A model generated the notes under the pieces. The model had not been told where the DNA came from and did not search any database. It worked only from the letters and a program-made list of their open reading frames with translations. Position numbers and translations under genes: made by a program. A stretch of DNA of 64,000 bases, taken from Phycisphaerales bacterium (GTDB lineage Bacteria > Planctomycetota > Phycisphaerae > Phycisphaerales > UBA1924). Each line of letters starts with the position of its first letter. Within the stretch, counting starts at the first letter, position 1. Shown here one piece after another: positions 30,447 to 56,794 of this stretch. The DNA lies in the NCBI GenBank assembly GCA_029260345.1, contig JAJDDK010000007.1, forward strand, positions 126,226 to 190,225, read 5' to 3'.

Positions 30447-31112
30447 ATGGAGCTGGATCAGATGAACACTTTCACGCCCCCCTTCAATACACCTTTCAGC
30501 ACGCCGTTCGGCGGTTCGTTCAATCCTTTCGGCGGCGCGGGTTTCAATCCCGGCTTTAACGGTCAGGGTTTCGGCGGCGGCGGCTTCGGCGGCGGTGGCT
30601 GGAATAACTGGACCGGCGGCGCCACGCCGAACTTCTCCGGTGGCTGGAACACGCCGTGGGGCGGCTCGAACTGGAACGGCTTTGGCGGTTTCACGCCGCA
30701 GGGCAACTGGGGCGGCACGCCGTCCTTCGGTGGCTTCAACACGCCGTGGAGCGGTGGCTCGAACTGGAACGCGTTCAACACCGGCGGCTTCGGCGGCTGG
30801 AACACGCCCTTCGGCGGAACGAACGGTTTCTCGACGCCGTGGAATGGTTTCAACACGCCGTGGAACGGCTTTGGTGGAGGCACGTCGTTCGGTTTCGGCG
30901 GCTTGAATGGCTGGGGCAACGGCGCCACGCCGAATTTCTTCGGCGGCTGGAACACGCCGTTCTTTGGCTTCCCCACCACCAACCCGAACACCACGGAGAA
31001 CAACGGCAAGCCCGTGAATGCTCCGTTTGGTTTCACGCCCGGCGTCCCGTTCGGCTTCAACCCGTACACGGGTCAGCCGATCACCGGCGAGCACGTCGCC
31101 AAGGCTGCCTGA
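30447..31112 (+). CDS. Low-complexity Gly/Trp/Asn/Phe-rich repeat protein (GGWNTP[W/F]GG-type repeats), no signal peptide
   Basis: The + frame shows strong GC3 bias versus the overlapping antisense ORFs. ~20 degenerate repeats such as 'FNTPWSGGSNWN', 'GGWNTPFGG', 'FNTPWNGFGGG'. A strong terminator follows. Confidence 0.55.
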   Translation: MELDQMNTFTPPFNTPFSTPFGGSFNPFGGAGFNPGFNGQGFGGGGFGGGGWNNWTGGATPNFSGGWNTPWGGSNWNGFGGFTPQGNWGGTPSFGGFNTPWSGGSNWNAFNTGGFGGWNTPFGGTNGFSTPWNGFNTPWNGFGGGTSFGFGGLNGWGNGATPNFFGGWNTPFFGFPTTNPNTTENNGKPVNAPFGFTPGVPFGFNPYTGQPITGEHVAKAA

Positions 31113-32964: not shown

Positions 32965-34230
32965 TCAGGTCCAGTTGCTCAGGAGAGCCGCGAGATCAGC
33001 GCCGTTGATCACATCATCACCGCTGAGGTCTTCTGGAATATCCGCGCCCCACAACGAAAGCAGTTGGGCGAGGTCGGCGCCATTGACCATCCCGTCGCCG
33101 TTCAAATCACCAACGATCGCAGCGTCACAAAGCTCCCATCGGCGCAGCGGCGTTGTGCTGGAGCCGCCGGGCGTCGTTGCATTCGCGCCGACGAGCAGTG
33201 CGTTGTCGTACGGCGCCGTCGCTCGCGCCACTGACGTCAACCCATCGCCAAGCGCGGACCACGCATCGCCGTCAAAGATCGCAATGCGGTTGGCCGGCTG
33301 ACCGCCAATGGTGGTGAATTCGCCACCGACCACCAGTTGAGCGCCTTGCGCCGAGTCGATCGTGCTGATCGTGTGCACCGGCCCATTGGCGCCTCCGGCA
33401 AAAGTGGTCCATGTGGTTCCGTTCCAACGCGCAAGATGCACGGCGGCCGCGGCGCCGGACATGGTGAAGTCGCCACCAGCGATCAGATCGCCTTCGTATT
33501 CCGCCAGCGCTCGCACAATTCCATTCAACCCGGCGCCAACGGCCGACCATGCGGCGCCATTCCACTTCACGATGTTCGCCGAAGGTTGCCCGCCGGCGCC
33601 GAGAAACGATCCGCCCACAAAGATCGCCTCACCGGCGCCATCGTTGTGTGGTTGCAATGCAACACCGGTCTTGGCGCCGCCCTGCAGACCCGTCGCCAGC
33701 GCAGTCCATGTCGCGCCATTCCACTGTGCGATCCCTGCGGCGCCGGCGCCGCCAGCTGTCAGGAATGTTCCCGCCGCGTAGAGGCGTTCACTATTTCCAT
33801 CATGAAAAGAAGCCAGCGCGAGAACATCGCCACCGAGTCCGGCGCCGAGCGGCGCCCATTGAGCGCCATTCCATTGTGCGATGCGATTGAGCACCGCCGC
33901 GCCCGATGATGTGAATTTTCCGCCGGCGAAGATTGCCCCCTGATGTTCGGCCAACGCGAACGCGGCGTCGTCAAAGCCATCGCCGAGCGAAACCCAGGCG
34001 TCGCCATCGAACTTGGCGACAAACGGCGCTGGCTCGCCGGCCATGCTCGTGAAGGCGCCAGCGGCGTACGCGGCGTTCTCGGATTCATGAAAGACCAATG
34101 CGCGAACGGCGCCATCGGCGGTGGATTTGTCCTGAAGGGGATCCCACGCCGGTTCGCAAGGCTGGGCGACTGCCACAGCCGGGAAGAACAAAAGTAAGGC
34201 GGAGAACGCTCGTCGGGGAGTATTCAGCAT
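32965..34230 (-). CDS. Secreted beta-propeller-type repeat protein ('WNGxxW' repeats) with C-terminal dockerin-like domain
   Basis: Signal peptide 'MLNTPRRAFSALLLFFPAVAVA'. ~7 repeats 'IAQWNGAQWAPLGAGLGG'. Ends 'DLNGDGMVNGADLAQLLSLWG…DDVINGADLAALLSNWT'. Alternative start ATG 34260. Confidence 0.65.
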   Translation of the reverse strand: MLNTPRRAFSALLLFFPAVAVAQPCEPAWDPLQDKSTADGAVRALVFHESENAAYAAGAFTSMAGEPAPFVAKFDGDAWVSLGDGFDDAAFALAEHQGAIFAGGKFTSSGAAVLNRIAQWNGAQWAPLGAGLGGDVLALASFHDGNSERLYAAGTFLTAGGAGAAGIAQWNGATWTALATGLQGGAKTGVALQPHNDGAGEAIFVGGSFLGAGGQPSANIVKWNGAAWSAVGAGLNGIVRALAEYEGDLIAGGDFTMSGAAAAVHLARWNGTTWTTFAGGANGPVHTISTIDSAQGAQLVVGGEFTTIGGQPANRIAIFDGDAWSALGDGLTSVARATAPYDNALLVGANATTPGGSSTTPLRRWELCDAAIVGDLNGDGMVNGADLAQLLSLWGADIPEDLSGDDVINGADLAALLSNWT

Positions 34231-34477
34231 GGCTGGTCCTCTGATCTCGGAGGAGGTCATGGGAAATGGTCGAGCCAGCGATATTACAGGCGGGGTGTTT
34301 CAGAGCAATGGTCTTGGGGAAACGCCGGGTATTACCCAGTTTCACTCAATGCGTCAGCCCGACCCGGACACGCTCAATTGGGCATTTTTCTGGCTCTTTG
34401 GGTAAGAAACGGAATAGAGTGAAGGTGGAGCTGTCGCGGGTGCGTACAGCCGGGAACTCATCGTGGGGACGATGCAT

Positions 34478-36283
34478 ATGAAGATTGGCGCACGAGGCGT
34501 TGCGACAGTGTTCGCCGCCGCAGGACTTGGTGCGATCGCGCTGGCCGGTGATCCCGAGCATCGAACCATCGATGGCTCCGGAAACAACATAAATCATCCG
34601 ACGATTGGCAGTGCGCACTCGAATCTGGGGCGCGCTGCGGCGCCGGAATACGGTGACGGCATTTCGTCGCTTGGCGGTGTGAATCGACCGAGCCCACGAA
34701 CCATCAGCAACAACGTCGCAACACAGGACACCATGCTTCCGTCGGGTGTATTCATTCCCGATCCGCGCGGATTGACGGATTACGTCTGGGCATGGGGGCA
34801 ATTCCTTGCCCACGACACTAACCTTTCGCCGGATGACACCGCTGGCAGCGCGTTTATCCAAATTCCCATTGGCGATCCGTGGTTTGACCCCGATGGCCTC
34901 GGCCTCTCGGTGATGCCATTCCGCCGCTCGAACTTTGACACCTCCACTGGCACAGGCGAACGCAATCCGCGTGAACAGATCAATGTGCTTTCCTCATGGA
35001 TTGACGCATCGACGGTGTACGGATCCGAACCGGATCGTGCCGCTTGGGTTCGCACGTTTACCGATGGGAAGCTGAAGACGGAAGTGCTTTCGTCAGGCGT
35101 GTACCCGCCGCTGAACGACGGCTCACAGGTGATGACGTTTTCCGGCAACGGCCTCGGTTTTCACGTGGCGGGTGATGATCGCGCCAACGAAACACTGACG
35201 CTCTTGTCGATGCACACGCTCTTTGTGCGAGAGCATAATCGTCTCGCGGATGAAATTGCGCTGGCGAATCCGGACTGGACGGACGAGCAGATTTTCCAGC
35301 GCGCCCGGCGCATCGTCGGCGCTGAAGTGCAGGCGGTTACATACCATCAATTTCTGCCCACATTGCTGGGCAAGGGCGCCATTCCCCCTTACAGCGGCTA
35401 CGACGACACCATCGATCCAACCATTCTGAATGAGTTTTCCACCGCGGCGTTCCGTGTTGGCCACACCATGGTGAGCACGGACGTCTTGCGACTTGATGAA
35501 CTGGGCCAGCCAATTCCCGAAGGGAATCTGCACATCTTTGAGTCGTTCTTCAAACCGGAACGACTGACCGATGAGGGCGGCATTGAGCCGATCCTGCGCG
35601 GGCTTGCCGCGTCTCAGCAGCAGCAGATTGATTCGCGCATTGTCGATGACTTGCGCAATTTTCTGTTGAATTCTCCTGGCGCCGGTGAGCCTGCGGCCCT
35701 TGATCTGGCGTCGGTGAATATTCAGCGCGGGCGCGATCACGGACTCGCGGACTACAACACCGTGCGGCAGGCGTTCGGACTTCCGGCGCGGCTCACCGTC
35801 AGTGAGATTTCTTCGGATTCGCAGATTCGTGCCGGGCTTGAGGCGTCATACCCCGATGTGAACGACATCGACCTGTGGGTCGGTTTGCTCGCGGAAGATC
35901 ACTACCCCGGATCCAGCGTGGGCGAAACCCTTCGCGCGATCTGGATTGATCAATTCACGCGACTGCGCGATGGCGACCGGTTCTGGTTCCAGAATGATCC
36001 TGAACTCGCGGATTTGCTCCCGTGGCTGGAGAGCCTCACGCTTCGCGACGTGATCATGGCGAACACCCCGATTGAAGTCGACGAGCTTCAAGAAAATGTT
36101 TTTCAAATTCCATGTCCGCCCGATCTCGACGGAAACGGCGCTATTAATGGAGTAGATCTTGCCGCTCTGCTGGCCAATTGGGGCTCGCAGGAATCCGGTC
36201 AGTCGGCTGATTTGACTGACGACGGCATCGTCGACGGGCAAGACCTTGCGGCACTGCTGGCGGGTTGGGGATCGTGCTATTGA
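34478..36283 (+). CDS. Animal-type heme peroxidase (peroxidase-cyclooxygenase superfamily) with C-terminal dockerin-like domain
   Basis: 'IDGSGNN…P.IGSA…L.R', 'WGQFLAHD', 'LSMHTLFVREHNRLADEIA', 'NIQRGRDHGL'. Signal peptide. Ends 'DLDGNGAINGVDLAALLANWG…DGIVDGQDLAALLAGWGSCY'. Start ATG 34478 sits 7 nt after a GGGGAC SD. The track ORF begins at GTG 34463. Confidence 0.8.
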   Translation: MKIGARGVATVFAAAGLGAIALAGDPEHRTIDGSGNNINHPTIGSAHSNLGRAAAPEYGDGISSLGGVNRPSPRTISNNVATQDTMLPSGVFIPDPRGLTDYVWAWGQFLAHDTNLSPDDTAGSAFIQIPIGDPWFDPDGLGLSVMPFRRSNFDTSTGTGERNPREQINVLSSWIDASTVYGSEPDRAAWVRTFTDGKLKTEVLSSGVYPPLNDGSQVMTFSGNGLGFHVAGDDRANETLTLLSMHTLFVREHNRLADEIALANPDWTDEQIFQRARRIVGAEVQAVTYHQFLPTLLGKGAIPPYSGYDDTIDPTILNEFSTAAFRVGHTMVSTDVLRLDELGQPIPEGNLHIFESFFKPERLTDEGGIEPILRGLAASQQQQIDSRIVDDLRNFLLNSPGAGEPAALDLASVNIQRGRDHGLADYNTVRQAFGLPARLTVSEISSDSQIRAGLEASYPDVNDIDLWVGLLAEDHYPGSSVGETLRAIWIDQFTRLRDGDRFWFQNDPELADLLPWLESLTLRDVIMANTPIEVDELQENVFQIPCPPDLDGNGAINGVDLAALLANWGSQESGQSADLTDDGIVDGQDLAALLAGWGSCY

Positions 36284-36456
36284 ATGGCACAGAGCGAAAT
36301 GTGACGTCCGAGAAACACGGGGAGACAACTCGATTTCACTGCGGCATAGCGGAATTGTCTTGTTCAATTTCGTGTGAGCGGGTACTTTTTTAGGCGGAGC
36401 GTGCTGTAGTGCGCGTTTCGGGAACAATTCATCTGACCTCGTGGGGACGAGAAAAC

Positions 36457-38265
36457 ATGGCTAATTCGAGAGCATTCACGCCCAAGCGCGCCGCGATGGC
36501 CGCACCTCTTGCGGTTGCGCTGTGCGCCGTCGTGGGAATGTCCGCATCGGCGGACGACCGTTCGATCGACGGTGTGGGCAACAACGTGGCAAACCCGACC
36601 TGGGGCGCCGCCGACATTCATCTGGTCCGTATGTCGTTTGCCGACTACACGGATGGCATTTCGACGCTTGCCGGCGCCTTGCGGGAAAACCCGCGCGTCA
36701 TCAGCAACGCCGTCGTGCACCAGGACACTTCCAACGGCATGATCATTCCTGATCCGCGCGGCCTGACGGACTACGTCTGGGCATGGGGTCAGTTTGTTGA
36801 TCATGACCTTGACGAAACACCGACGGACGGTCCCGGCACCGCATTCATTCAAGTCCCCACGGGTGATCCGTGGTACGACCCCGAGGCGGATGGCGGCGGC
36901 CTGCTTCCGTTCCGCCGCTCGCGCATCGATTTTTCCACCGGCACGAACGTGAACAATCCGCGCGAGCAGGAGAATGCCATCACCGCGTTCCTCGATGGGT
37001 CTGCGGTGTACGGCGCTGATGAAACACGCGCCGACTGGCTGCGCACGCATTCCGGCGGCCAGCTGAAGATGTTTGCTGATGTCACCAATGGCATGATGAT
37101 GCCGTACAACGACGGAAGCATCCCGAACGCCGGTGGCAATGACGTCACACTGTTTGTGGGCGGCGACGTTCGCGCAAACGAAACGTCCTCACTTTCGTGC
37201 ATGCACACGCTTTGGGTGCGCGAGCACAATCGTCTCGCCGATGAAATCGCTGCGGCGAACCCGACGTGGACGGACGAAGAAATCTACCAGCGGGCCCGCA
37301 AGATCGTTGGCGCCCTGCTCCAGAAGATCACCTACGACGAATTCCTTCCTGCTCTGCTCGGTGAAGGCGCGCTCGCGCCGTACTCCGGGTACGACGACAG
37401 CGTCAATGCCAGCATCGCGACGGAGTTTTCGACGGCCGCGTATCGCGTCGGTCACACCATGCTTTCACCGATCGTCCTCCGCCTCGATGAATTCGGCGAT
37501 CCGATCGGCTCCGGCAACTTGTCGCTTCGCGATTCGTTCTTTGATCCTGACAAGATCATGCTTGAGGGCGGCATGGAGCCCATCTTCCGCGGCCTTGCCG
37601 CCGGTCAGATGCAGAAGGTTGACGGGTTCGTCAACGACGATGTTCGCATCTTCCTGTTCAACGAAATCGGCTCAACGCCTCCGGCGATGGACCTCGTGGC
37701 GTTGAACATCCAGCGCGGCCGCGACCACGGTCTGCCGGACTACAACAGCATCCGTGTTGCCTATGGCCTGGCGCCCGTCGTCAACTATTCCGACATCACG
37801 TCGGATGCGACGTTGCAGGCAGCCATCGCCTCGGTCTACCCGGACATCAACGACATGGACGCTTGGATCCCGATGATCGCCGAAGACCTCGTCCCCGGCT
37901 CCAGCCTCGGCGAAACCATCCGCACGATCCTGATCGACCAGTTCACGCGCATCCGTGACGGAGACCGTTTCTGGTACGAGAACGACGCCGACCTTTCAGG
38001 CCTGATGTCGTGGATCGATTCGCAGAAGCTCTCCGATGTGATCATCCGAAACACGACGATCAACGAAGGCGAGATTCATGAGAATCTGTTCTTCGTGGCA
38101 TGCCCCGGCGACATCGACGGCAACCTGACCGTCAATGGCTCGGACCTCGCTGCAATGCTTGCGGCGTGGAACACCAGCAGCCCCGCGGCGGACCTCAACG
38201 GCGACGGCGTCGTGAACGGGTCTGACCTTGCTGCCATGCTCGCGGCATGGGGCAGCTGCATCTGA
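36457..38265 (+). CDS. Animal-type heme peroxidase, tandem paralog, with C-terminal dockerin-like domain
   Basis: Collinear with 34478..36283 ('IDGVGNN', 'WGQFVDHD', 'SCMHTLWVREHNRLADEIA', 'NIQRGRDHGL'). Ends 'DIDGNLTVNGSDLAAMLAAWN…DLNGDGVVNGSDLAAMLAAWGSCI'. The same 'tcgtggggacga' 12-mer lies upstream of the start. Confidence 0.8.
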   Translation: MANSRAFTPKRAAMAAPLAVALCAVVGMSASADDRSIDGVGNNVANPTWGAADIHLVRMSFADYTDGISTLAGALRENPRVISNAVVHQDTSNGMIIPDPRGLTDYVWAWGQFVDHDLDETPTDGPGTAFIQVPTGDPWYDPEADGGGLLPFRRSRIDFSTGTNVNNPREQENAITAFLDGSAVYGADETRADWLRTHSGGQLKMFADVTNGMMMPYNDGSIPNAGGNDVTLFVGGDVRANETSSLSCMHTLWVREHNRLADEIAAANPTWTDEEIYQRARKIVGALLQKITYDEFLPALLGEGALAPYSGYDDSVNASIATEFSTAAYRVGHTMLSPIVLRLDEFGDPIGSGNLSLRDSFFDPDKIMLEGGMEPIFRGLAAGQMQKVDGFVNDDVRIFLFNEIGSTPPAMDLVALNIQRGRDHGLPDYNSIRVAYGLAPVVNYSDITSDATLQAAIASVYPDINDMDAWIPMIAEDLVPGSSLGETIRTILIDQFTRIRDGDRFWYENDADLSGLMSWIDSQKLSDVIIRNTTINEGEIHENLFFVACPGDIDGNLTVNGSDLAAMLAAWNTSSPAADLNGDGVVNGSDLAAMLAAWGSCI

Positions 38266-38320
38266 AACTGACTGGGACCTGAAATCGCTTCAGGCCCGGA
38301 TCGAATAGCTCTCACCAAGC

Positions 38321-38362
38321 CGCCGCCGGCGCCTCCCTCGTGGATCGCCGGCGGTTTTTTTT
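38321..38362 (+). terminator. Rho-independent terminator after peroxidase gene
   Basis: Stem 'ccgccggcg…cgccggcgg' followed by a T10 run. Confidence 0.6.
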
Positions 38363-38395
38363 CGCGCTGACTTCAAACCCGAACAAAATACGATC

Positions 38396-39058
38396 ATGTC
38401 CCTTGACGCCACCGAACAAGACCCGTACATTCGATCTCGGATGCATGGAGGCGCAAGCATGATGACTCCCCGACGAATCTCGAAGCTCATTCAACTTGGC
38501 GACGCGGACGCCCTCCTCGACGAGGTGCTTGCCAACGGTCGCCCGCTGCCGATCGCAGCCCGGCTCCGGCTTGGTGAGCCGGGCTCGATCGAAGCGGCGG
38601 CTCTCGCCTTCGGCCTTCAGCGATCCATCGAACTCAGCGGGTGGACTGGGACACCATCGCTTGAAGCACTTGACCGGTTGCGGTCGCTTCAGGCCCCCTC
38701 AGGCGCCTTCGGAGGCATTTGCAGCACCTCAGCGGCGATACGAGCGCTGGCCATGCTGCTGGATTCCCCCGGGCTGACAGGAGAACACAGAGACACAGTC
38801 GCCGAGTCGCTCGATCGAGCCGTCCACGCGATGTTCTGCGTGTTGACGATGCCCGTGATGAGTTCATTTGCAGTAGCGCCGGATGATCTTGACCGCGCCA
38901 TGGTGCTCTGGCAGTTGTCGGACCTGGCGCTGTTGCGTTCCCAGTTGAATCTCGATGCGGTGCAGCGCGACCTCATTCAGGGCGAACCGCTTTCCGGTGC
39001 GGCCCGCGCGGTGCTGGCCATGGCCGGAGCGATCACCGTTGAACGCCGCGCCGCGTGA
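38396..39058 (+). CDS. Hypothetical protein (Ala/Leu-rich; weak 'QxxxGxFGG' prenyltransferase/terpenoid-cyclase-like motif)
   Basis: Full-length ORF with moderate GC3 bias and no recognizable domain. Coding status uncertain. Confidence 0.35.
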   Translation: MSLDATEQDPYIRSRMHGGASMMTPRRISKLIQLGDADALLDEVLANGRPLPIAARLRLGEPGSIEAAALAFGLQRSIELSGWTGTPSLEALDRLRSLQAPSGAFGGICSTSAAIRALAMLLDSPGLTGEHRDTVAESLDRAVHAMFCVLTMPVMSSFAVAPDDLDRAMVLWQLSDLALLRSQLNLDAVQRDLIQGEPLSGAARAVLAMAGAITVERRAA

Positions 39059-39248
39059 TGACGGCTTGTGAGGATGAAAAGCGGCTTTCGGACGTGCAAT
39101 CTCTGAAAATCGTGGCCCTGAAGCGGTTTTGCGAATATCGTGGTGCTTGGGGCGGTACAAGTAAAGATTCGGTCGCCGGCGGCAGGGTGCGTGAGCCCGG
39201 CGACGATTCAACGCCGCATCACGAATTGACACTGACGGAGATTTGAGA

Positions 39249-40460
39249 ATGAAACTTCGGACTGGTTCTGCAATGGTTTCGACGCTGGTTGGCGTCGCGT
39301 GTCTGGCGGTCGCTGGCGCTGCGGGATACACGTTCGCCACCGGCGAATCCGTGTGCAGCCTTCTGGGCTCCTGCGACACCGACGCGACGGCCGTTTCGGT
39401 CGTCGAGACCGCGGCGATGAGCGATGACGCGGTCGTCGTCATTCCCGCGGCGCTCGCTTCATCGGACGCCGGTGAATGCGAAGGCGAAGCGAAGGCCGAG
39501 TGCGCCGGGGATGTCAACGTTGTGAATGCTGCCGTCGTGAGCGATTGCGAGACAGCAACGTCATGCGATGGCGGCGCCAAAGTCGTTCATGCTTCAGAGA
39601 CGTCCGATGAATGCGCCGAGTCCAAGGCCGGATGCTGCGACGCCGAGAAGACGGCCGACAACGCCGAGGCCGTCGTCGTGAACGCGGCTCTCGTTTCCGA
39701 TGAAGATGGCGAAACCAAGGCTTGCTGCCAGGACGCTGAGAAAACGAAAGTCGAGAACGTCGCGATCGCCACGGGCGAATGCGAAGCCTTGACGGATGAA
39801 TGCGCCGAAGAGCCGATGCAGACGAGCCCGATTGAAATCATGCCCGTCAACGCAAGCTGCCCGCTGACGGAAGAGCCGCTCACGCCGGGCCTCGCCTCGG
39901 TGCACGAAGGCTTCACCGTCGGCTTCTGCTGCAACGGCTGCAAGCGCAAGTGGGATGCGCGAGCCGACGCCGAGAAGGCGGACTACATCGTGATGAACGC
40001 GAAGCTCGTCAATGAGATGTGCCCGACCTGCCCGACGATGAAGGCGAAAAAGACGTCGGCGTCTCTCTACAACGGTTTCGCCGTTGGTTTCTGCAATGAT
40101 CACTGCAAGGGCACGTTTGACGCCAAGGACGACGCCGGCAAGACCACGTACATCGCGTCGATCGTCACGCCCGTGAATGAGAACTGCCCGTTCAGCGATG
40201 AAGCGGTCGATGCCGAAATCGTTTCGCTGTATCGCGGCTACGCCGTCGCGTTCTGCTGCAACGGTTGCCAGTCTCGCTTTTCCGGCAAGATGGCCGACAG
40301 CGATCGCGACGCCATGGTCGTGACGCTGGCCTCCAACCTGGATGGCGCGATGATTATTCCCGCCGCCGAAGCACAGAGCTGTGGCGAAGGCTGCGGCGAT
40401 GAGAATTGCGGCGAAGACTGCAAGGACAAGCTGGCTGAGAAGTCCAAGCCCGGCGAGTAA
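39249..40460 (+). CDS. Secreted acidic Cys-rich protein with three YHS/TRASH-type metal-binding domains
   Basis: GGAG SD before ATG 39249. Signal peptide. Three repeats of 'N..CP…Y.G..V.FCC/CN..C….F' (e.g. 'NASCPLTEEP…HEGFTVGFCCNGCKRKWD'). Cys-rich ends 'CEGEAKAECAGD' and 'QSCGEGCGDENCGEDCKD'. Confidence 0.6.
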   Translation: MKLRTGSAMVSTLVGVACLAVAGAAGYTFATGESVCSLLGSCDTDATAVSVVETAAMSDDAVVVIPAALASSDAGECEGEAKAECAGDVNVVNAAVVSDCETATSCDGGAKVVHASETSDECAESKAGCCDAEKTADNAEAVVVNAALVSDEDGETKACCQDAEKTKVENVAIATGECEALTDECAEEPMQTSPIEIMPVNASCPLTEEPLTPGLASVHEGFTVGFCCNGCKRKWDARADAEKADYIVMNAKLVNEMCPTCPTMKAKKTSASLYNGFAVGFCNDHCKGTFDAKDDAGKTTYIASIVTPVNENCPFSDEAVDAEIVSLYRGYAVAFCCNGCQSRFSGKMADSDRDAMVVTLASNLDGAMIIPAAEAQSCGEGCGDENCGEDCKDKLAEKSKPGE

Positions 40461-46500: not shown

Positions 46501-47424
46501 ATGAGCACGGCGGGCGCCAACCCGGCGGAGGGTGTCCAAGCGGACGCTGCCCTTGCGCGCTGGGTGACACCGGCGAATCTCATCATTGCCGGCCTGACGC
46601 TGTTCGGATTCCTCGCCCTCTTCTATCAGTGGTTCGGCTTTCAACACCGCTTCAGTTGGGGCAGCGATGACTGGGCGCACGCCTACGTCGTGCCTCTGAT
46701 TTCCGGCTATGCAATCTGGAAAGAGCGCGACCGCTTAGCGCTCATGACGCCGCAACTGTTTTGGCCCGGCTTGCTTCCTTTGCTGCTGGGCATTGTGTGC
46801 TACTTCTTCTTCATGCTTGGCTTCCCCAATCACATGGGGCAAGGCTTCTCGATTGTGTTGTGCATATACGGACTCGTGCTCCTGAATCTTGGCCCGAACA
46901 TCACGTCACTGCTGACCTTCCCGATCGCGTACCTCGTGTTCGCTGTCACGATTTCCGAACGCGTGATGCAGGGCGTCACGTTCCAATTGCAACTCATCGC
47001 CACCAAGGGCGCCTACGTCCTTCTGAATGTCATGCAAATTACGACGGACATTGCGGGCAATACACTCACGATCCACAAGAGTTCGGGCGAAACGATCCCG
47101 CTCAACGTCGCCGAAGCATGCAGCGGCATGCGCATGGTCATCGCGTTTTACGCGCTCGGCGCCGCCGTCGCGTTTCTCTCAACACGGCTCTGGTGGCAGC
47201 GCATAGCGATCCTTTTGCTCGCCGGGCCGATCGCGGTGTTCGTCAACGTGCTGCGTGTCGCGTCGCTTGGCGTCCTGAGCTTGTGGGACGAAGAATTCTC
47301 AAAGGGCAATGCGCACATGGCCGTTGGCCTGCTGTGGCTGGTGCCTGCCTTCTTGCTGCTGATGTTCAGTGTGTGGGCGCTGAAGCGCATGGTCGATGAG
47401 CCGCAACCGGGAGCCGCCACATGA
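46501..47424 (+). CDS. Exosortase (XrtA-like)
   Basis: 8 TM helices. Active-site 'AEACSGMRM' Cys and 'NVLRVASLG' Arg motifs. EpsI gene follows with ATGA overlap. Confidence 0.75.
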   Translation: MSTAGANPAEGVQADAALARWVTPANLIIAGLTLFGFLALFYQWFGFQHRFSWGSDDWAHAYVVPLISGYAIWKERDRLALMTPQLFWPGLLPLLLGIVCYFFFMLGFPNHMGQGFSIVLCIYGLVLLNLGPNITSLLTFPIAYLVFAVTISERVMQGVTFQLQLIATKGAYVLLNVMQITTDIAGNTLTIHKSSGETIPLNVAEACSGMRMVIAFYALGAAVAFLSTRLWWQRIAILLLAGPIAVFVNVLRVASLGVLSLWDEEFSKGNAHMAVGLLWLVPAFLLLMFSVWALKRMVDEPQPGAAT

Positions 47425-48386
47425 CCGGCGCACGACTCCTGCATCCGGGCGCCATCGCTTCCGTCGTCATTCTCGGCGCCGCCGCGGTCGGACTGAGCGC
47501 AGCGATCGCCGTCAGCGGTGCGCAACTCCGCAAACGACCGATCAATCCGCCGGACGGACTTCGATTCCCGACACTTCCCGCAGAAACAGAAACATGGGAA
47601 CGCTTCGGCGCCGATCCCCCGCCGCTGTCCGCCGAAATTCTTGAAAGCCTCGGCACGCAGAACTATTTCTCGCGCAACTACATCAAGAAGGGCTCGATGG
47701 AAGCGGGAGAGCCCATTGTGATCAACTTGCATTGCGCGTATTACACGGGCATGCCGGACACGGTGCCGCACGTCCCCGAAGCCTGCTTCGTTGGTGGCGG
47801 CATGACGCTGGTGTCAAATGCGACGCTGGTTCCGATTCCATTTGATCTCAATCGATTCCCGCCGGATGAAATGCTCGAGACCAGTGAGATTGATCCAGAC
47901 ATCTATGGCGTCGTGCGTCAGGGCCGCATGGGGCCTTACTCCGAAGCGCCGGGCAACCGCGTGCACATGCCATTCGGGTTTGACGATCTCAAGCTGCGCG
48001 TCACTGAATATGAAGCAACGGACTCACAACGTGTCTTTGCCGGCTATTTCTTCATCGCCAATGGCTGGGGCGTGAGTGACGCCCTGCAAGTGCGCCAGCA
48101 GGCGTTCGACTTGTCGGCGGACTATGCGTTCTACGCCAAAGTGCAATTCACCAGCTATCAAGTAGAGTCTCCGCAGGAATTGAGCGAAATCGCCGCGGAC
48201 CTGTTGAACGAGTTGATGCCCGAAATCATGCGGCGTGTGCCTGACTGGACCGAGGTCATCGTTGGCGCGTACCCCCCACCGGACGATGTGGCGGAGGCGA
48301 ACACGCGCGACCGGCGCGGCACACAGGAATTCGAAGAGTGGAAAGAAGACTTCAATGCCCCCGACCTGCCCGGACGGCGGCGCTGA
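47421..48386 (+). CDS. Exosortase-associated EpsI-family protein
   Basis: N-terminal TM anchor. 'VPHVPEACFVGGG' (EpsI HxPxxCxxGxG-type motif). Translationally coupled to the exosortase. Confidence 0.7.
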   Translation: MTGARLLHPGAIASVVILGAAAVGLSAAIAVSGAQLRKRPINPPDGLRFPTLPAETETWERFGADPPPLSAEILESLGTQNYFSRNYIKKGSMEAGEPIVINLHCAYYTGMPDTVPHVPEACFVGGGMTLVSNATLVPIPFDLNRFPPDEMLETSEIDPDIYGVVRQGRMGPYSEAPGNRVHMPFGFDDLKLRVTEYEATDSQRVFAGYFFIANGWGVSDALQVRQQAFDLSADYAFYAKVQFTSYQVESPQELSEIAADLLNELMPEIMRRVPDWTEVIVGAYPPPDDVAEANTRDRRGTQEFEEWKEDFNAPDLPGRRR

Positions 48387-48425
48387 CTCCCCTGATGACC
48401 GAACGACCCCGAGGATGCTGAGGCC

Positions 48426-51400
48426 ATGGCCACCAAAGTCAATGTGAAATTCGTCATCGTGCTCGCCGCCGCACTCGCCGTGCTGTTCGGCGGCGTTGCG
48501 TTCGTTGCCTATCAGAAGCTCACCACTTCCGGTGAGGAATACGAGGCGAAGGGCGATGCGCTGATGGCCGTCGGCGATTTCGATGAAGCGTCCGACATGT
48601 ACCGGCGCGCCGTCAATCATGATCGCACGAACATCGTCTGGCTGACCAAATGGCGCGACTCGCTTCTCAAAGTCGTTCCCGAAACACAAGTCGAGTACGT
48701 CAAGTACTACCAAGACTACTACTTGGGCATTCTGAATCAGCTCGCGGCGCTTCAGGACAGAGACCCCATCGCTCAGCGCGCTTACCTTGAGCCGTATTAC
48801 CAGCAGCTTGTCAAAGGCGGCGCCAATGCCGAGTCTTGGCAGCGACTCATTGACCACGTCAACAACATGCTCCAGCGTTTGCCGGAGGATGACGTCGTCA
48901 CCAAACAGATTCATCGGTATCGCGGCCTGGCGCGCCTCGCCCGCATGGAGCAAATCGAAGAGCGTGACGAAGAACGCGAGCAAACACTCGCTGACCTTCG
49001 CATTGCGATTGAGGCGGATCCAACAGATGTGGAGTGCGCCGTTGGCGTCTTGAAGTGGCGATTCATTGAATGGAAACGTGCGCACCGGTTGCGCCGGGCG
49101 CAAACCGCCGATCAGCTTTGGACGGCGCTCGGCGACGAAGTCGTGGCGATGAAGGAGTCGTTCCCGAATTCGCCGCCGATCCTGCTGACCGAACTGCAAA
49201 TCATGATCGAGCGCGTTGTGCACCTCGAAGACGACCCGGCCGCTCGCGTGCGCATGGTCAACAACATGAAGGGCTTTGAGGACCGGCTGCTCGAATCGAT
49301 TGAGGCCACGGCGCCCGAGTCGATCGACGAAAACATGCTGCGTCGCACGTACAACTCCTTAAAGCCGCTGCAACCAAGTAACTACGCCGCAACCATGCTT
49401 CCCATCGTGACGCGCGTGTCTGAGGCCAAGCCAAATGACGCCGGTCTCATGTTGCTGCGCGCCGAAGTGTTGAATGATCTCAATCGACAGGAAGACGCCC
49501 TGCAGCAGTTGCGCCAAGTGGCGGAAATGCCGGACCTTCCGGTGAGCCTGGCTGGCCTCATGCTGGTCGCCAATCAGCGCTACACGGCGATGTACAGCCA
49601 AGGCGACACGGTGCTCGACCTGCGCGAAACCACGCAGGATCCGGCCAAGCGCGCGGAACTCTTGAAGGAAGCCCACCAGTTTCGTGATGAGCTTGCGGAG
49701 AACATCACGGGTGGTGAAAACTCGCCCGTCGTGATGCTCCTCGATGGGCGTCTGGCGCTGGCCGAAGGAAACGCGAGCGAAGCCGTCGAGCGACTCAAAG
49801 CGCTGGACGATCGCGTTGGTGGACGCGACAGCGAAGTCATCAAGTTGCTGGGCCGGGCGCTGCTTGAAGCAAACATTCTCGGCGCCGCGCGGCAGCAGTA
49901 CGCGCGGCTCGTGGAAGCAAATCCGAGCGACATTCAATCGCTGTACACCCTCGCCAGCATCGAGAAGCGTCTTCAGAATTATCCGGCGGCTATCCAGCGC
50001 TTTGAAGAAGTGCTGGCGCTCACGCCTGAATTCATGGAAGCGCGGCTCGAGATCGCCGCAATTCGTGCGGAAACGGGCATCATCGACATCCGCGGAACGG
50101 TGCAAGGAGTAGATCCGGTTCGAGTCTCACTGATCCGCTGGCGGGCCCTCATGCAGCAGGAAGAGCCGGAGCCGGACGAGGCGCTCGCCATTCTGCGCGA
50201 AGCGCGTCGTGACAACGGCGACAACCCCATGATCCTCAATGCGATGATCATGCACTTCAATCAAGAAGGAAACGCCGAGCAGGCGATGGCCGTCGCCAAT
50301 GAGGCCATTGCGCTGTATCCCGAAGATCAGCGCTTTGCAGACTGGAAGCGACGCCTTGATCAGCTTGAAGTGGGATTGTCCATCGACGATCGCCTGCGAC
50401 TCATTGATGAGTCCACCGCCGAACCCATTGAGAAACTCATTCAGAAATACGCACTGCTCAACAGCGCGGGGCGCACGGACGAAGCCGAAGCATTTTTCGC
50501 CGAAGCGCAGAGGCTGGCGCCGAACAATCCGGACATCATCGAAAAACAGTTCATGCAAGCGCTGGAGCATGAAGACTTCGCGCAGGCACGGTCCATCGCC
50601 GCGACCGCGGCGCGACTCAACCTGGACAGTGTGGACGGCCTCCTTTATCAGGCGCGGCTCGAATTCGCGCAGGAAAACTTCCAGCAGGCGTTGGCGACAC
50701 TTCAGCAGGTGACGGGGCGCTTGCCGTTCGATCCTCTGGCGCTTCGATTGCTCGGCCAGACGTATCTGCAAATGGGGCGGGCCAACGATGCGTTGAACGC
50801 CTTGGCGCAAGCCTTTGAAAACAAGCCGGACGGCGTGCTGGTGGCGCGACTTTATGTGCAGGCATTGATTCAGCTCCAGCGGCACGATGAAGCGCTGCGG
50901 ATCGTGAAGCGAGCGCGCAAATTCAACGGCGTCGATCGCATGCTCATGAATCAATGGCTCGCGCTGGAGGAGATGGCCGGTGACCGTGCCTTGGCGCTCG
51001 CGGAACGCACCAAGCGGTACGACGCCAATCCGAATGACACGAACAACACCGCCGCCTTGATCCGCATGCTGATGGACGACGAGCAATGGGCCAAGGCGCG
51101 CGTCGTGATTGATGCGATTCGCGAGGCACAACCCGACAGCGCGGATCTCGCTCGGCTGGATGCGAACTGGCACGCGCATCAAGGAAACATCGAGGACGGC
51201 GCGAAGATCCTTCAAGGGTTCACCGGTGACGAAGACACCCTCGCCGGATCCGTGCGACTGGCGCAGTACTACTCCGACTTTGCCCAATACGATCTGGCGG
51301 TCACGACGCTTGAACAGGCGCGCACGCTGCAGGACAGTGGCCAGAAAGTGGTCGAACTGCTGATCGCTGACTTGTACTTTCGCACGGACCGCTACGACAA

Positions 51401-52988
51401 AGCCATTCCGTTGTTCCGTGAGGCGCTCAGCGCCGATGAGGACACCGAGTCCGGCGATGTGGCCCGGCGATACGCCGATGCGCTGATTCGATTGAAGCGG
51501 TATTCCGAAGCGGAGCAAGCGCTGCTCGCCCTCAAAGACAGAGCGCGAAGCAACACGCGCACGAACATCCTTCTCTCCCGCGCCGCCGCAGGGAACGGGG
51601 ACGATCGGGCCGCGATCAATTACCTCGACGCCGCCGTCGCCGCTTCACCCAACAGTCCGGAGCCATTCATTGAGCGAGCGTCGTTCTATTCTGATCGAGG
51701 CCAGCGTCTCGAAGATGTGTTGCAGGACTTGAACCAGGCCATTCGTTTGGCGCCGTCGTCCGTGCCCGCGCGTCAGTTGAAAGCGACGGTGCTTGTCCGC
51801 AACAATCGGATGGCTGAGGCGTCGCGTGAATTGCAGCAAGCCGTCACTGCCAATCCGGACAACCGGGAGCTGCGCCAATTGCTCATCGAATCGCTCACGC
51901 GCATGGGGCAGAATGGCGAAGCGATCGTTGCCGCGACGAGCGCTTCGCGCCAGTTCCCCGACGATGCGGGTTGGCTGCTGACCGCTGGTGATCTGCACGC
52001 GCGTGATCGACGCTGGAAGGAAGCGCTCGGGTTTTACACGCAGGCGTACGACCTGGATCCTTCGGCGCGCGTCGCCATCCGCATGGGACAATCGCTGATT
52101 GAAGTGGATCCGCCTCGATATCAGGATGCGATCGACCTGCTTGCGAAGCACCTGGATGAGGAAAATCACCTCACGACCGTCTTGCTCCTGCAATCGCAGG
52201 CGCACGCAAAACTGGGGAACTCATCCGTCGCGCGCCGGCTTGCGACCGATTCATTCAATGCCGCGAACAAACCAGCGGATATTCGCGATTGGTTCAGCGG
52301 CGTCGGTCTGCTCTTTGAGACGCGTGATGCGCTGCTTGACTACATTCGCAATCAGACGCCTAAGGCCGAACTGGAGCCGATCTACCTCGTGCTGCTGTCG
52401 CGGCTTGAAGCGCAAGATTCTGCGATGCACTCGTCCGTCATCGACAAGCTTCGCGCCATCGAAGATCGTCAGATGGATACGGCCACGCGCATGGATCTGT
52501 ATCGCATCGTCGGCGGTCTGCTCTATATCAATGGCTCGTACGAGGATGCGGCGGATGTTTTCCGCGACGCTGTGGCCCTGGCGCCGGAAGACCTCGAATT
52601 CAATAACAACCTCGCGTACCTGCTGGCTCACCACCTGAATGACGCCCAAGGCGCGTTGGCCCCCGCCGAGAAAGCCGCCCAGCTCGCGCCCGTGGACCCA
52701 AACGTCCTCGACACACTGGGCTGGGTGTATTTCCAGCTTGGCCGCCTGAGCCAGGCGCAGGCGACCTTAAATCAGGCGCTGCAAAACGGACGTGACGCGG
52801 CCGAGCGCGTGCCGGCGCTCCTTCACCTCTCAGAAACCATCCTCGCGCAGAATCAGCCGGATTCGCACAGCCGCGCCCTCCGCAATGCAGAAGCCGCCCG
52901 TGAGATGATTGAACGATCGCCCGCCCTGAAGCAGTCGTTCGGACCTCAATTGGATGCGGTTATGGAGAAGCTCAATCGGTCCGAATGA
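48426..52988 (+). CDS. Giant TPR-repeat protein (1520 aa) of the exosortase/EPS locus (PrsT-like), N-terminal TM anchor
   Basis: Single N-terminal TM helix followed by >30 TPR-like repeats. GAGG SD. Lies between epsI and the wzc-like gene. Confidence 0.7.
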   Translation: MATKVNVKFVIVLAAALAVLFGGVAFVAYQKLTTSGEEYEAKGDALMAVGDFDEASDMYRRAVNHDRTNIVWLTKWRDSLLKVVPETQVEYVKYYQDYYLGILNQLAALQDRDPIAQRAYLEPYYQQLVKGGANAESWQRLIDHVNNMLQRLPEDDVVTKQIHRYRGLARLARMEQIEERDEEREQTLADLRIAIEADPTDVECAVGVLKWRFIEWKRAHRLRRAQTADQLWTALGDEVVAMKESFPNSPPILLTELQIMIERVVHLEDDPAARVRMVNNMKGFEDRLLESIEATAPESIDENMLRRTYNSLKPLQPSNYAATMLPIVTRVSEAKPNDAGLMLLRAEVLNDLNRQEDALQQLRQVAEMPDLPVSLAGLMLVANQRYTAMYSQGDTVLDLRETTQDPAKRAELLKEAHQFRDELAENITGGENSPVVMLLDGRLALAEGNASEAVERLKALDDRVGGRDSEVIKLLGRALLEANILGAARQQYARLVEANPSDIQSLYTLASIEKRLQNYPAAIQRFEEVLALTPEFMEARLEIAAIRAETGIIDIRGTVQGVDPVRVSLIRWRALMQQEEPEPDEALAILREARRDNGDNPMILNAMIMHFNQEGNAEQAMAVANEAIALYPEDQRFADWKRRLDQLEVGLSIDDRLRLIDESTAEPIEKLIQKYALLNSAGRTDEAEAFFAEAQRLAPNNPDIIEKQFMQALEHEDFAQARSIAATAARLNLDSVDGLLYQARLEFAQENFQQALATLQQVTGRLPFDPLALRLLGQTYLQMGRANDALNALAQAFENKPDGVLVARLYVQALIQLQRHDEALRIVKRARKFNGVDRMLMNQWLALEEMAGDRALALAERTKRYDANPNDTNNTAALIRMLMDDEQWAKARVVIDAIREAQPDSADLARLDANWHAHQGNIEDGAKILQGFTGDEDTLAGSVRLAQYYSDFAQYDLAVTTLEQARTLQDSGQKVVELLIADLYFRTDRYDKAIPLFREALSADEDTESGDVARRYADALIRLKRYSEAEQALLALKDRARSNTRTNILLSRAAAGNGDDRAAINYLDAAVAASPNSPEPFIERASFYSDRGQRLEDVLQDLNQAIRLAPSSVPARQLKATVLVRNNRMAEASRELQQAVTANPDNRELRQLLIESLTRMGQNGEAIVAATSASRQFPDDAGWLLTAGDLHARDRRWKEALGFYTQAYDLDPSARVAIRMGQSLIEVDPPRYQDAIDLLAKHLDEENHLTTVLLLQSQAHAKLGNSSVARRLATDSFNAANKPADIRDWFSGVGLLFETRDALLDYIRNQTPKAELEPIYLVLLSRLEAQDSAMHSSVIDKLRAIEDRQMDTATRMDLYRIVGGLLYINGSYEDAADVFRDAVALAPEDLEFNNNLAYLLAHHLNDAQGALAPAEKAAQLAPVDPNVLDTLGWVYFQLGRLSQAQATLNQALQNGRDAAERVPALLHLSETILAQNQPDSHSRALRNAEAAREMIERSPALKQSFGPQLDAVMEKLNRSE

Positions 52989-53103
52989 ACGAGTCGGGAG
53001 CTAGCCAATCACCTCAACCGGCAACGTCCGAGAATGACGAACACCGGCCGAACCAAGCCTCTTTCGATGAAACGAACCCAGATTTGACCCCGAGCAAGTA
53101 GTC

Positions 53104-55371: not shown

Positions 55372-55402
55372 CGTATTCTTTCATCGTCACCAGTGGAAGT
55401 GG

Positions 55403-56794
55403 ATGAACACGCAGTCGCCCATCTTTGATTTCCCGGGGCTTGGTGATTTCACCCCGCCCCCGTCCGCCGCCGACCCCCTCGCGGTCGAGGAGATGACGCG
55501 GCTCTCGATTTTTCATGGCTACATCGGCGTCTTCGTCGTCGCGTTCCTTGCGACGCTCCTGGTGACGCCGATTCTGCGCCGACTCGCCATCGCCAACGGC
55601 GTCATCGATCATCCCGACTACGAACGCAAAGAGCACAAACTCCCCGTCGCCTACCTCGGCGGCGTCGGGATTTACATCGGGCTGCTGCTTGCCTTCGCCT
55701 ACAGCTTCTTTGCGCCAAGCGGTTTCTTTGATCGGCACCCGTCGGAAGTGACACAACACGCCGTGCCGTTCTCCGTGCTGCTGGGCATGACGCTCATCAT
55801 GTTCGTCGGTTTGCTGGATGACATGATCGGCATCAGCCCGCGCATCAAGATTTCCGGGCAGCTTCTCGCCGCCGCTGCGCTGGCGATGGACGACGTCGGG
55901 GTCAAAGTCGCGGCGGGCGTTTTGACGCCGTTCGCTCGACTCATCGGCGTACAAGAAAATCTCCTCTTTACATTCGATCTTCCGTTCTCGATCCCGATGT
56001 TCGGCGCCCAGATACAGATCGACGTGGTCTACTGGGTGGGCACGGGGATCATCGCGATCTTTATTCTCGGCGCGTGCAACGCGAGCAATCTTCTGGACGG
56101 TCTGGACGGGCTGCTCACCGGCGTCACGGCGATTGCCGTCGCCGCCATGCTGATCATCGCGCTGGGCCTCGGCCTCGCCAGTGACGGACCGCTCGATGGC
56201 GCTCGCGTTGTCATCTGCCTCGCGGTGCTTGGTTCGTGCCTCGGATTCCTCCCCCACAACTTCAAACCAGCGACAATCTTCCTCGGCGATTGCGGCTCCA
56301 TGCTGCTTGGCTTCATGACGGTCGTCGTGATTCTGTCGCTGGGTGACACTGGCAAAACGCCACTAGTCGTTGCGGGGCTCCTGATTTACGCCGTGCCGAT
56401 CATGGATACAACGCTGGCGATCGTTCGCCGCAAAATGTCGGGCAAGCCGATGAGCGAACCGGACGACCAGCACATTCATCACTTGCTGAAGAGATCGTTC
56501 GGCGTGACCCGCGCCGTCTTCACGCTGTATGGCATCGGCGCCGTGTTCGGGATTCTCGGGATTCTGGTGTCGCTGGGCCGCGCCCGCGTGGCGTATGTCT
56601 TTGCACTGGTGCTTGCGGCATTCATCGGTGTCACCGCCGTGAAGATCGCTCGGCTGAAGATTTTTCAGGAGCAGGCCAAGGCGATCGCCGAAGCGCGGAT
56701 GCGGGCCACCCAGGCGCCGCTACCGCCCCGCCCGACGCGAGCCGCGCGGCATTCCGCCGAAGATCCATCCCCGGTCCAGCCGACACGCTCCTGA
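55403..56794 (+). CDS. Polyprenyl-phosphate sugar-1-phosphate transferase, MraY/WecA family (GT4), with extended C-terminus
   Basis: 'LLDDMIGISPRIK', 'NASNLLDGLDGL', ~11 TM helices. Confidence 0.8.
   Translation: MNTQSPIFDFPGLGDFTPPPSAADPLAVEEMTRLSIFHGYIGVFVVAFLATLLVTPILRRLAIANGVIDHPDYERKEHKLPVAYLGGVGIYIGLLLAFAYSFFAPSGFFDRHPSEVTQHAVPFSVLLGMTLIMFVGLLDDMIGISPRIKISGQLLAAAALAMDDVGVKVAAGVLTPFARLIGVQENLLFTFDLPFSIPMFGAQIQIDVVYWVGTGIIAIFILGACNASNLLDGLDGLLTGVTAIAVAAMLIIALGLGLASDGPLDGARVVICLAVLGSCLGFLPHNFKPATIFLGDCGSMLLGFMTVVVILSLGDTGKTPLVVAGLLIYAVPIMDTTLAIVRRKMSGKPMSEPDDQHIHHLLKRSFGVTRAVFTLYGIGAVFGILGILVSLGRARVAYVFALVLAAFIGVTAVKIARLKIFQEQAKAIAEARMRATQAPLPPRPTRAARHSAEDPSPVQPTRS

Follow-up and report, generated by a model that had tools for sequence, protein, structure and literature searches.

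Why would a planctomycete keep, side by side, two genes for what looks like the same exported peroxidase, and place the same twelve bases ahead of both start codons? The question is posed by a 64,000-nt stretch of contig JAJDDK010000007.1 (assembly GCA_029260345.1, positions 126,226 to 190,225 of the forward strand; referred to here as the window) from a Phycisphaerales bacterium of the lineage UBA1924. The AccC protein encoded in the window is 73-85% identical to proteins from metagenome-assembled genomes of Planctomycetota, Phycisphaerales and Phycisphaeraceae, in keeping with a Phycisphaerales-like planctomycete host. Two same-strand (+) open reading frames (ORFs) adjoin at the locus: gene 1 (34478..36283), coding for 601 residues, and gene 2 (36457..38265), coding for 602. 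An initial annotation made from the sequence alone had described them as a tandem pair of secreted-type, dockerin-tailed paralogs of about 600 residues, a description confirmed by the ORFs, Pfam matches and alignments, which identify both as full-length peroxidockerin genes whose products are 55% identical across 585 residues. The answer that we consider likely has three parts: the pair would encode two exported, Ca-binding heme peroxidases, one singly and the other doubly linked to its heme; the two genes would descend from an old duplication; and the 12-mer would be a ribosome-binding region kept by selection.

Family membership and known relatives

The proposed membership of the peroxidase-cyclooxygenase superfamily is upheld by full-length matches to An_peroxidase (Pfam PF03098; gene 1 E 4.2e-152, gene 2 E 5.6e-149, profile positions 2-530 of 530 in both) and by the solved relatives 8s6c, 6erc, myeloperoxidase (MPO), lactoperoxidase (LPO) and DUOX. 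The nearest solved structure is CyanoPOX (8S6C), the peroxidase of Cyanobacterium sp. TDX16 (PMC11776367), which aligns end to end with both products (gene 1 E 1.6e-152, gene 2 E 1.6e-159). Next in order come DdPoxA (6ERC), mammalian MPO and LPO, and then DUOX, while cyclooxygenase (COX) and alpha-dioxygenase match over partial stretches at about 1e-20. This ranking bears on an option named in the initial annotation, that the enzymes are lipid dioxygenases of the cyclooxygenase/alpha-dioxygenase type. Such enzymes do belong to the same superfamily, but partial matches at E ~1e-20 against 1e-152 for LPO-like enzymes, together with a Gln-His-Arg triad, Glu/Asp heme links and a Ca site that are hallmarks of the halogenating branch, leave the idea scarcely credible.

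Judged by sequence, both genes probably belong to the lactoperoxidase-like bacterial branch, the Family 6 'peroxidockerins' of the superfamily. The fusion of a bacterial LPO-like peroxidase to a dockerin was named 'peroxidockerin' when Family 6, which includes LspPOX, was described (PMC4420034), and DdPoxA has been assigned to the same family (PMC5787809). The order of solved relatives (CyanoPOX, then DdPoxA) fits this placement as a ranking of matches rather than a tree built with a reference set. Like the Family 6 peroxidockerins (PCC 8106), the two proteins combine a bacterial LPO-like domain with the Gln-His-Arg triad, a Ca site and Asp/Glu heme links. A C-terminal dockerin is likewise found in part of that family, whose hosts are marine and aquatic bacteria, planctomycetes and cyanobacteria among them. 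Unlike those enzymes, the present pair consists of two anciently diverged tandem copies, the first of which is without the heme-linking Asp.

Three characterized relatives frame what might be expected of the pair. CyanoPOX residues Asp80, His81, Arg199, Glu202 and His294 are all matched here, except for the Asp in gene 1, but CyanoPOX is encoded by a single gene and has, in place of the dockerin, a C-terminal motif for possible modification, cleavage, sorting or attachment (PMC11776367). DdPoxA is the most suitable model for gene 1: it belongs to Family 6, is secreted and has the Glu-heme ester bond only, with Ile at the Asp position. It differs in being eukaryotic, glycosylated and without a dockerin, in its Ca ligands and in the replacing residue, and its similarity reaches only ~1e-90. 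RbMPO, from the planctomycete Rhodopirellula baltica, oxidizes halides and thiocyanate, halogenates, and kills Escherichia coli in vitro (PMC10204396). It is a planctomycete enzyme of the same superfamily, likened to the present pair by its published description and not by sequence alignment, and it differs in coming from another planctomycete class and in its reported oxidation of chloride (PMC10204396).

The family is large (at least 7979 database clusters at E<=1e-20) and varied at its C-terminus, where dockerins, T9SS (type IX secretion system)-type tails (PF18962), RTX repeats (PF00353), a PEP-CTERM sorting domain by NCBI naming (P0056, P0070) or Arg-rich tails are found. The C-terminal motif of CyanoPOX is presumably PEP-CTERM-like. 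Scans of genome and metagenome contigs with both proteins returned distant relatives only (<=51% identity), from cyanobacteria, Bacteroidota, other planctomycetes and marine group II (MGII) archaea; none of those relatives has the 12-mer, a dockerin tail or a YHS-like neighbour, and the close relatives discussed below were obtained through exact-protein look-ups alone. The genome-contig scan also placed homologues 41-50% identical in MGII archaeal metagenome-assembled genomes (Poseidoniales, Thalassarchaeaceae; loci L014, L027, L030, L034 and L036), as well as homologues in cyanobacteria, Bacteroidota, Myxococcota and Gammaproteobacteria. The presence of LPO-like peroxidases in many phyla and in archaea therefore indicates wide horizontal spread.

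Catalytic residues and the missing aspartate

Alignment to CyanoPOX (8s6c), DdPoxA (6erc) and MPO places every catalytic residue in both copies, among them the catalytic Arg and heme-ligand His that the initial annotation had singled out for checking. The distal triad is Gln108, His112 and Arg235 in gene 1 and Gln112, His116 and Arg239 in gene 2, aligning with MPO Gln91, His95 and Arg239. The proximal triad is His329, Asn414 and Arg417 in gene 1 and His333, Asn417 and Arg420 in gene 2, with a further proximal Arg at 326 and 330, respectively. The pattern of the distal Ca2+ site, an Asp after the distal His plus an xSxFxDxS loop, is found in both genes (Asp113 and LSSWIDAS 171-178 in gene 1; Asp117 and ITAFLDGS 175-182 in gene 2). 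The distal-His motif WGQF(L/V)(A/D)HD reads WGQFLAHD in gene 1 and WGQFVDHD in gene 2, as had been noted. The motif MHTL(F/W)VREHNRLADEIA, which had been taken for the proximal one, is present as quoted but comes directly after the distal Arg and the heme-linking Glu; the true proximal His is His329 (gene 1) or His333 (gene 2), within (F/Y)RVGHTM, and corresponds to MPO His336 in FRYGHTL.

Where the two enzymes part is at the acids that esterify the heme. The Glu is present in both (Glu238 in gene 1, Glu242 in gene 2). The A/D variation within the WGQF motif falls on the residue before the distal His, which is the heme-ester Asp (MPO Asp94, CyanoPOX Asp80): gene 2 has Asp115, and in gene 1 the Asp is lost and replaced by Ala111 (codon 34808..34810, +). 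Of the heme-linking residues, gene 2 thus has both acids and gene 1 one of the two, as in DdPoxA. The replacement is not peculiar to the window: in the alignment column, Ala occupies the position in 8/8 sequences of the copy-1 clade (61-100% identical), and every copy-2 sequence has Asp there, as do the nearest relatives with a single copy. A separate clade of proteins without a dockerin tail (P0025, P0037 and P0038) also has Ala at this position, within WGQF(I/V/L)AHD, so the Asp has been lost more than once in bacteria.

Does the substitution leave gene 1 a catalytically dead pseudo-enzyme? Ala111 does stand where an Asp is expected, but every other catalytic, proximal and Ca-site residue is intact, the ORF has been conserved long-term in seven lineages, and DdPoxA, with Ile at the same position, is a very fast oxidizer of iodide and thiocyanate (PMC5787809). 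Loss of activity is on these grounds highly improbable. DdPoxA also indicates what a single ester bond may entail: its Fe(III)/Fe(II) potential is -0.276 V, as against -0.158 V for LspPOX, and it oxidizes I- and SCN- very fast and Br- poorly (PMC5787809). By analogy, gene 1 is predicted to encode an active, singly linked enzyme of lower potential, and gene 2 a doubly linked enzyme similar to LPO and LspPOX.

A probable old duplication with reciprocal loss

How old the difference is can be gauged from relatives of the locus. A block consisting of a Band_7 gene (-), a gene for a Rax2-like beta-propeller with a dockerin (-), peroxidase 1 (+) and peroxidase 2 (+) recurs in six related contigs (L001, L038 (GCA_002007545.1), L002, L003-L005, L039 and L040), whose copy-1 proteins are 61-82% identical to that of the window. 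In the window, the divergent neighbour, a Rax2/DUF5122-like beta-propeller with a dockerin-like tail, lies at 32965..34260 (-), and its synteny with a gene-1-type peroxidase holds in all related contigs. Four further loci, from more distant relatives, show one peroxidase each. In L053 and L054 the divergent beta-propeller gene comes before it, the arrangement found for gene 1; in L052 and L055 a protein of ~200 residues and a Cys-rich YHS/TRASH-like protein come after it, the arrangement found for gene 2.

In a bootstrapped neighbour-joining analysis, the one tree method applied (200 replicates, 541 columns), copy 1 groups with the L053/L054 type (S1) at 90% and copy 2 with the L052/L055 type (S2) at 96.5%, and a clade uniting copy 1 with copy 2 receives 0%. 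These groupings, and the synteny that each single-copy type shares with one member of the pair, have as their simplest reading an old duplication in tandem, after which some lineages would have lost one copy and some the other. By the same reading, the change from Asp to Ala would have been fixed only where both copies were retained, the one-copy relatives having kept the Asp.

A shared 12-mer at a probable ribosome-binding region

The second part of the question concerns the 12-mer TCGTGGGGACGA, which the initial annotation had reported as identical ahead of both start codons. It is indeed exact before both starts, at 34461-34472 and 36439-36450, each one base away from the coordinates first given (34460..34471 and 36440..36451). 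Nor is it a dispersed element, a prospect that the annotation had proposed to check: in the 64 kb of the window there is no third exact copy, and words with up to two mismatches number 7, as against 9.9 expected from shuffles. The only copy with one mismatch, at 10855, was set aside, as it lies within a Ser/Thr kinase gene. In the fetched loci, ~0.5 Mb in all, the 10-mer core is restricted to these peroxidase starts, apart from one intragenic match, in L023, that was judged to be chance since it is inside an ORF.

The 12-mer forms an island of identity between upstream regions that are otherwise unalignable, and this speaks to the notion that it matches by chance or lingers neutrally from the duplication. 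As that notion would have it, the window is GC-rich and a few unrelated upstream pairs do share words of 9-10 nt. Among 946 pairs of 40-nt upstream regions, though, the longest shared word (12; the next is 10) belongs to exactly the paralogue pair; the flanks are unalignable and the proteins 55% identical, so that neutral sites are saturated; and the same word stands in the same place in orthologues 61-87% identical. Chance or neutral persistence is contradicted by these facts and can be given next to no credence. Gene conversion as the source of the identity was also judged unlikely, the identity ending exactly at the 12-mer.

Ahead of gene 2, an exact 12-mer is found in L001, L038, L002, L039/L051 and L040, and L003 departs from it at two positions. 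Ahead of gene 1, L002 and L040 have the exact word and the other lineages a degenerate one (GTGGGGAAC in L001/L038, ATGGGGAAC in L003 and TCGTGGGAGTAC in L039). The four single-copy relatives have TTCGTGGGGAGGA, ACGTGGGGAGGC, TCGTGGGGGCTGGAG and TCGTGGAAATGTGAGGG at this site. From these sequences, the clade inherited the 5' half, TCGTGGGG, from its ancestor; in the outgroups this half runs into a canonical GGAGG, and the 3' arm, ACGA, is seen only in genomes with both genes.

The position of the element is that of a Shine-Dalgarno (SD) sequence. Its GGGGA lies 8 nt ahead of the ATG at 34478 and 9 nt ahead of the ATG at 36457; other genes of the window have a GGAG-type SD at the same distance from their ATG, and more distant relatives have GGGGAGG there. 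The earlier suggestion of a GGGGA SD-like core, duplicated along with the translation-initiation region, fits both this normal distance and the conservation in orthologues. The element also bears on the choice of start codons. For gene 1, in-frame alternatives are an ATG at 34472 and the GTG at 34463 from which the mechanical ORF begins; since the ATG at 34472 falls inside the stem described below, and in view of the SD spacing, the ATG at 34478 is favoured. For gene 2, whose mechanical ORF begins at a GTG at 36409, orthologue gene calls and SD spacing favour the ATG at 36457. The public records differ from both choices: P0010, the annotated product, for which a look-up returned no contig, gives gene 2 as 618 residues begun at GTG 36409, and one record for gene 1, P0001, has 591 residues, 10 fewer than the form begun at ATG 34478.

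The G-rich core is flanked by complementary arms, TCGT and ACGA, and the resulting hairpin is recovered for the window copies both by RNAalifold and by single-sequence folds. The initiation element of gene 1 (34459..34474, +) can form a 6-bp hairpin, CATCGT-GGGG-ACGATG, with its loop at 34465-34468, which is part of the minimum free energy (MFE) fold; that of gene 2 (36438..36451, +) can form a 5-bp hairpin, CTCGT-GGGG-ACGAG, with its loop at 36443-36446. The outer pair varies. Among the gene 2 sequences, five have C-G and that of L039 has U-A; among those of gene 1, two have A-U and that of L002 has G-U. Pairing is kept in 97.8% of cells, a value that 0/500 shuffles reach and that slid registers, at <=58%, fall short of. 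The 12-mer can accordingly be read as a ribosome-binding region that, from the comparative evidence, appears to predate the duplication and to have been kept by selection on translation initiation or its control, and it probably presents its G-rich SD in a small hairpin loop. A search of 34000-38600 with the Rfam 15 covariance models gave one chance-level match (E 3.5), elsewhere.

Three other regulatory readings were weighed. In one, a post-transcriptional regulator acting in trans would bind the 12-mer and control both paralogues together; it would be either a CsrA/RsmA-type protein or a small RNA (sRNA) complementary to UCGUGGGGACGA. CsrA/RsmA-type proteins bind GGA in hairpin loops over the SD, and several features are congenial to such control: the twelve conserved bases exceed what an SD needs, the complementary arms leave GGGG(A) exposed, and the full 12-mer is seen in two-copy genomes only, the single-copy relatives having only TCGTGGGG and a canonical GGAGG. 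On the other side, neither a regulator gene nor a complementary sRNA was identified and there was no Rfam match, the loop UGGGGA is a poor fit to the CsrA consensus A(N)GGA(N), and the element has disappeared from copy 1 in three lineages where both genes persist. A regulator that recognizes the 12-mer is possible but unsupported, and we rate it as unlikely. Still less probable is a palindromic operator in the DNA, TCGT-N4-ACGA, at which a dimeric transcription factor would act on both genes. Inverted-repeat arms of 4-6 bp and changes in the outer pair that preserve symmetry are what such a site would show, but the coding strand invariably has GGGG at the centre, L002 gene 1 has a G-T closing pair, which pairs in RNA only, the site always lies 6-18 nt ahead of the ATG, with the conserved promoter-like element of gene 2 ~50 nt upstream of it, and there is no adjoining regulator gene. 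The third, a promoter for an extracytoplasmic function (ECF) sigma factor (GGAAC...CGT, with the 12-mer as the -10 element), was rejected because GGAAC and CGT stand 4 nt apart ahead of gene 1 but 9-14 nt apart in the gene 2 orthologues; moreover, nearly no leader would remain.

Predicted export and the dockerin tail

Both proteins have a layout that would suit exported enzymes. Gene 1 encodes a signal-peptide-like segment (residues 1-23), the An_peroxidase domain (29-542) and a dockerin (549-598); gene 2 encodes the same order (1-32, 35-545 and 552-599). The signal-peptide-like N-termini, recognized by eye, are MKIGARGVATVFAAAGLGAIALA, ending in AIALA before GD, and MANSRAFTPKRAAMAAPLAVALCAVVGMSASA, ending in MSASA before DD. 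In both proteins they stop just before homology to the crystallized CyanoPOX chain begins, and inspection by eye of both N-termini revealed no twin-arginine motif.

The dockerin tails claimed by the initial annotation are borne out by Pfam and by structure prediction. Dockerin_1 scores above its gathering cut-off of 22.9 in both proteins (24.7 bits for gene 1 and 28.9 for gene 2), and the tail comprises two repeats of 21-22 residues of the form DxNxDGxVNxxDLAxLLAxWG. An AlphaFold (AF2) model of the gene 2 tail, built from an alignment of nine window tails, has a mean predicted local distance difference test (pLDDT) score of 88.7, and a Foldseek search of the PDB with this model returned dockerins for all of the top 15 matches (best 2y3n_B, TM 0.81, root-mean-square deviation 1.3 A), with E-values that are weak, the domain having only 60 residues.

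The same tail, with repeats of the form DLNGDGxVNGxDLAxLLAxWG, is carried by ~10 of the ~47 genes of the window, which are otherwise unrelated: seven on the minus strand (2044-3414, 3452-4855, 5108-6550, 7739-9163, 12184-12960, 17223-19052 and 32965-34260) and, on the plus strand, gene 1, gene 2 and 62000-63583. The N-terminal parts of most of these genes have no Pfam match. Among the ~47 window genes there is also no match to cohesin families. Given a tail on ~10 genes and no cohesin in the window, the module looks like a lineage-wide sorting or anchoring tag and is not peculiar to the peroxidases, both of which may be displayed at the surface. A comparable arrangement is the 'planctosome' proposed for freshwater Planctomycetes (PMC6461901), in which dockerins are likewise found on secreted, non-cellulolytic planctomycete enzymes; that model differs in having identified cohesin-bearing scaffolds, none of which is seen in the present 64-kb window.

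A pair of cysteines brackets the tail. The only two in gene 1, Cys546 and Cys600, flank the dockerin, as do Cys549 and Cys601 in gene 2. In 5/9 aligned tails a Cys just ahead of the module co-occurs with one at the extreme C-terminus; in the other 4/9 both aligned positions are without Cys, the Rax2-like tail having one farther upstream. The pattern is suggestive of a disulfide clamp that is optional and that would suit an extracytoplasmic location.

Possible functions of the pair

From these features a working model can be assembled. Each peroxidase would be made with a Sec-type signal peptide and exported, after which its C-terminal dockerin, bracketed by the Cys pair, would retain it on the cell surface or within the extracellular matrix. 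The heme of gene 2 would be ester-bonded through Asp115 and Glu242; that of gene 1 would be linked through Glu238 only and may have a lower redox potential and a narrower halide range, as in DdPoxA. With H2O2, compound I would form and oxidize I-, SCN-, possibly Br-, or organic donors. Oxidation of halides and pseudohalides is proposed because the catalytic residues are conserved and because LspPOX, RbMPO, CyanoPOX and DdPoxA have been characterized.

A doubtful alternative, though one with some claim to attention, is that the enzymes do not act mainly by producing antimicrobial hypohalites and instead act on the cell itself, cross-linking or altering its surface proteins or matrix (by peroxidasin-like HOBr chemistry or dityrosine formation), or simply scavenge external H2O2. 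Ten or so unrelated secreted proteins in 64 kb that bear the same tail would be potential co-localized substrates, an exosortase/exopolysaccharide locus lies nearby, and peroxidasin and peroxinectin are precedents within the superfamily (PMC4420034). Set against this, no target was identified, and the characterized bacterial relatives act as halide or pseudohalide oxidizers.

Several observations weigh against the account favoured here, that of two exported, differently linked peroxidases of old duplication whose 12-mer is a selected ribosome-binding region. The single-copy status of the S1 and S2 types is read from short contigs, and a second copy may lie elsewhere in those genomes. The 3' arm of the 12-mer has been lost before copy 1 in 3/6 lineages and in all four single-copy relatives. 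GGGGA fits the canonical anti-SD less well than does the GGAG of neighbouring genes (the 3' end of the host 16S rRNA being outside the window). Covariation in the hairpin rests on one pair in nine related sequences; its stem spans no more than 5-6 bp, the initiation regions fold with energies no different from those of shuffles (z -0.4 to +2.1), and the hairpin is outside the MFE fold for L002 gene 1 and L003 gene 2. Finally, the window, besides its lack of a cohesin match, has no visible H2O2-producing enzyme among its ~47 genes.

It is enticing to go further and to speculate that the locus specifies a differentiated two-enzyme system, with a singly linked, low-potential copy 1 and a doubly linked, higher-potential copy 2, both dockerin-tethered outside the cell, and with the SD-hairpin serving as an operator through which a translational regulator would set both outputs. 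Retention of both copies would in that case depend on the change from Asp to Ala, a connection drawn because the one-copy related genomes all keep the Asp. We regard this extension as rather unlikely.

Intergenic region and neighbouring genes

Alignment of six orthologous intergenic regions reveals a putative promoter-like element ahead of gene 2, TTGTTC-17 nt-TACTTT (36360..36388, +): the 17-nt spacing is held at all six loci, the second box reads TA(C/G)TTT, and a conserved GGAATTGTC precedes TTGTTC. A generic sigma-70 scan made no call at this element. The same stretch also scores as a weak, G-U-rich hairpin with a T-run, a terminator-like feature for gene 1 (36359-36382), and since it can be read as either promoter or terminator, genes 1 and 2 may be transcribed either together or separately. 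A possible 5' leader hairpin of gene 2 (36395..36420, +) appears in the RNAalifold consensus, with weak covariation in 6 sequences.

Downstream of the pair lie a protein of ~200 residues without a family match (38396-39058) and a Cys-rich protein (39243-40460, +), which has a hydrophobic segment at its N-terminus, a low-complexity region rich in acidic residues and 2-3 YHS/TRASH-like repeats of the form CP...GF(T/A)VGFCCxGC. The YHS/TRASH-like gene follows the peroxidase or peroxidases clade-wide, including in the single-copy relatives (L002 6160-7380; L003 6709-7791; L038 8782-10440; L052 8697-9833; L054 3792-4439; L055 4301-5302), usually with the ~200-residue protein in between, and is absent beside the distant homologues of other phyla. 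On the other side of the block, 30447-31112 (+) encodes a 221-residue low-complexity protein rich in Gly, Asn, Phe and Trp (GGWNTPFGG, FG/WN repeats) and without a Pfam match, which keeps its position between a FecCD permease gene and the Band_7 gene in relatives (L001 2179-2724).

Farther away, 46501-56794 (+) carries genes for an exosortase (EpsH), a DUF3485 (EpsI-like) protein, a 1520-residue TPR protein, an AAA_31/BcsQ-like ATPase and a family 4 glycosyltransferase. It looks like an exopolysaccharide/PEP-CTERM-type locus, while the secreted proteins of the window bear dockerin tails. At 9356-17045 (-), an ECF sigma factor gene (11578-12117) lies between two large Ser/Thr kinase genes, one with TPR repeats (9356-11581) and the other with PD40 repeats (14283-17045), and is adjoined by the gene for a small dockerin-tailed protein (12184-12960).

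Implications

The family, the domain fusion and the chemistry of these enzymes are already described, and current knowledge is not overturned by the present findings. What is new is the fixed loss of the heme-linking Asp in copy 1 of a syntenic pair that appears to be old, the conserved hairpin that probably presents the SD, and a dockerin tail that looks like a general tag. The frequency of this tail, with no cohesin in the window, bears on how exoproteins are anchored in planctomycetes. Bacterial LPO-like enzymes are of wider interest as the evolutionary roots of the peroxidases of innate immunity and for biotechnological use as stable halogenating or antimicrobial catalysts. Within that family, a long-conserved pair that differs at the heme-linking Asp amounts to a natural experiment on the second ester bond, one that complements the work on DdPoxA and LspPOX.

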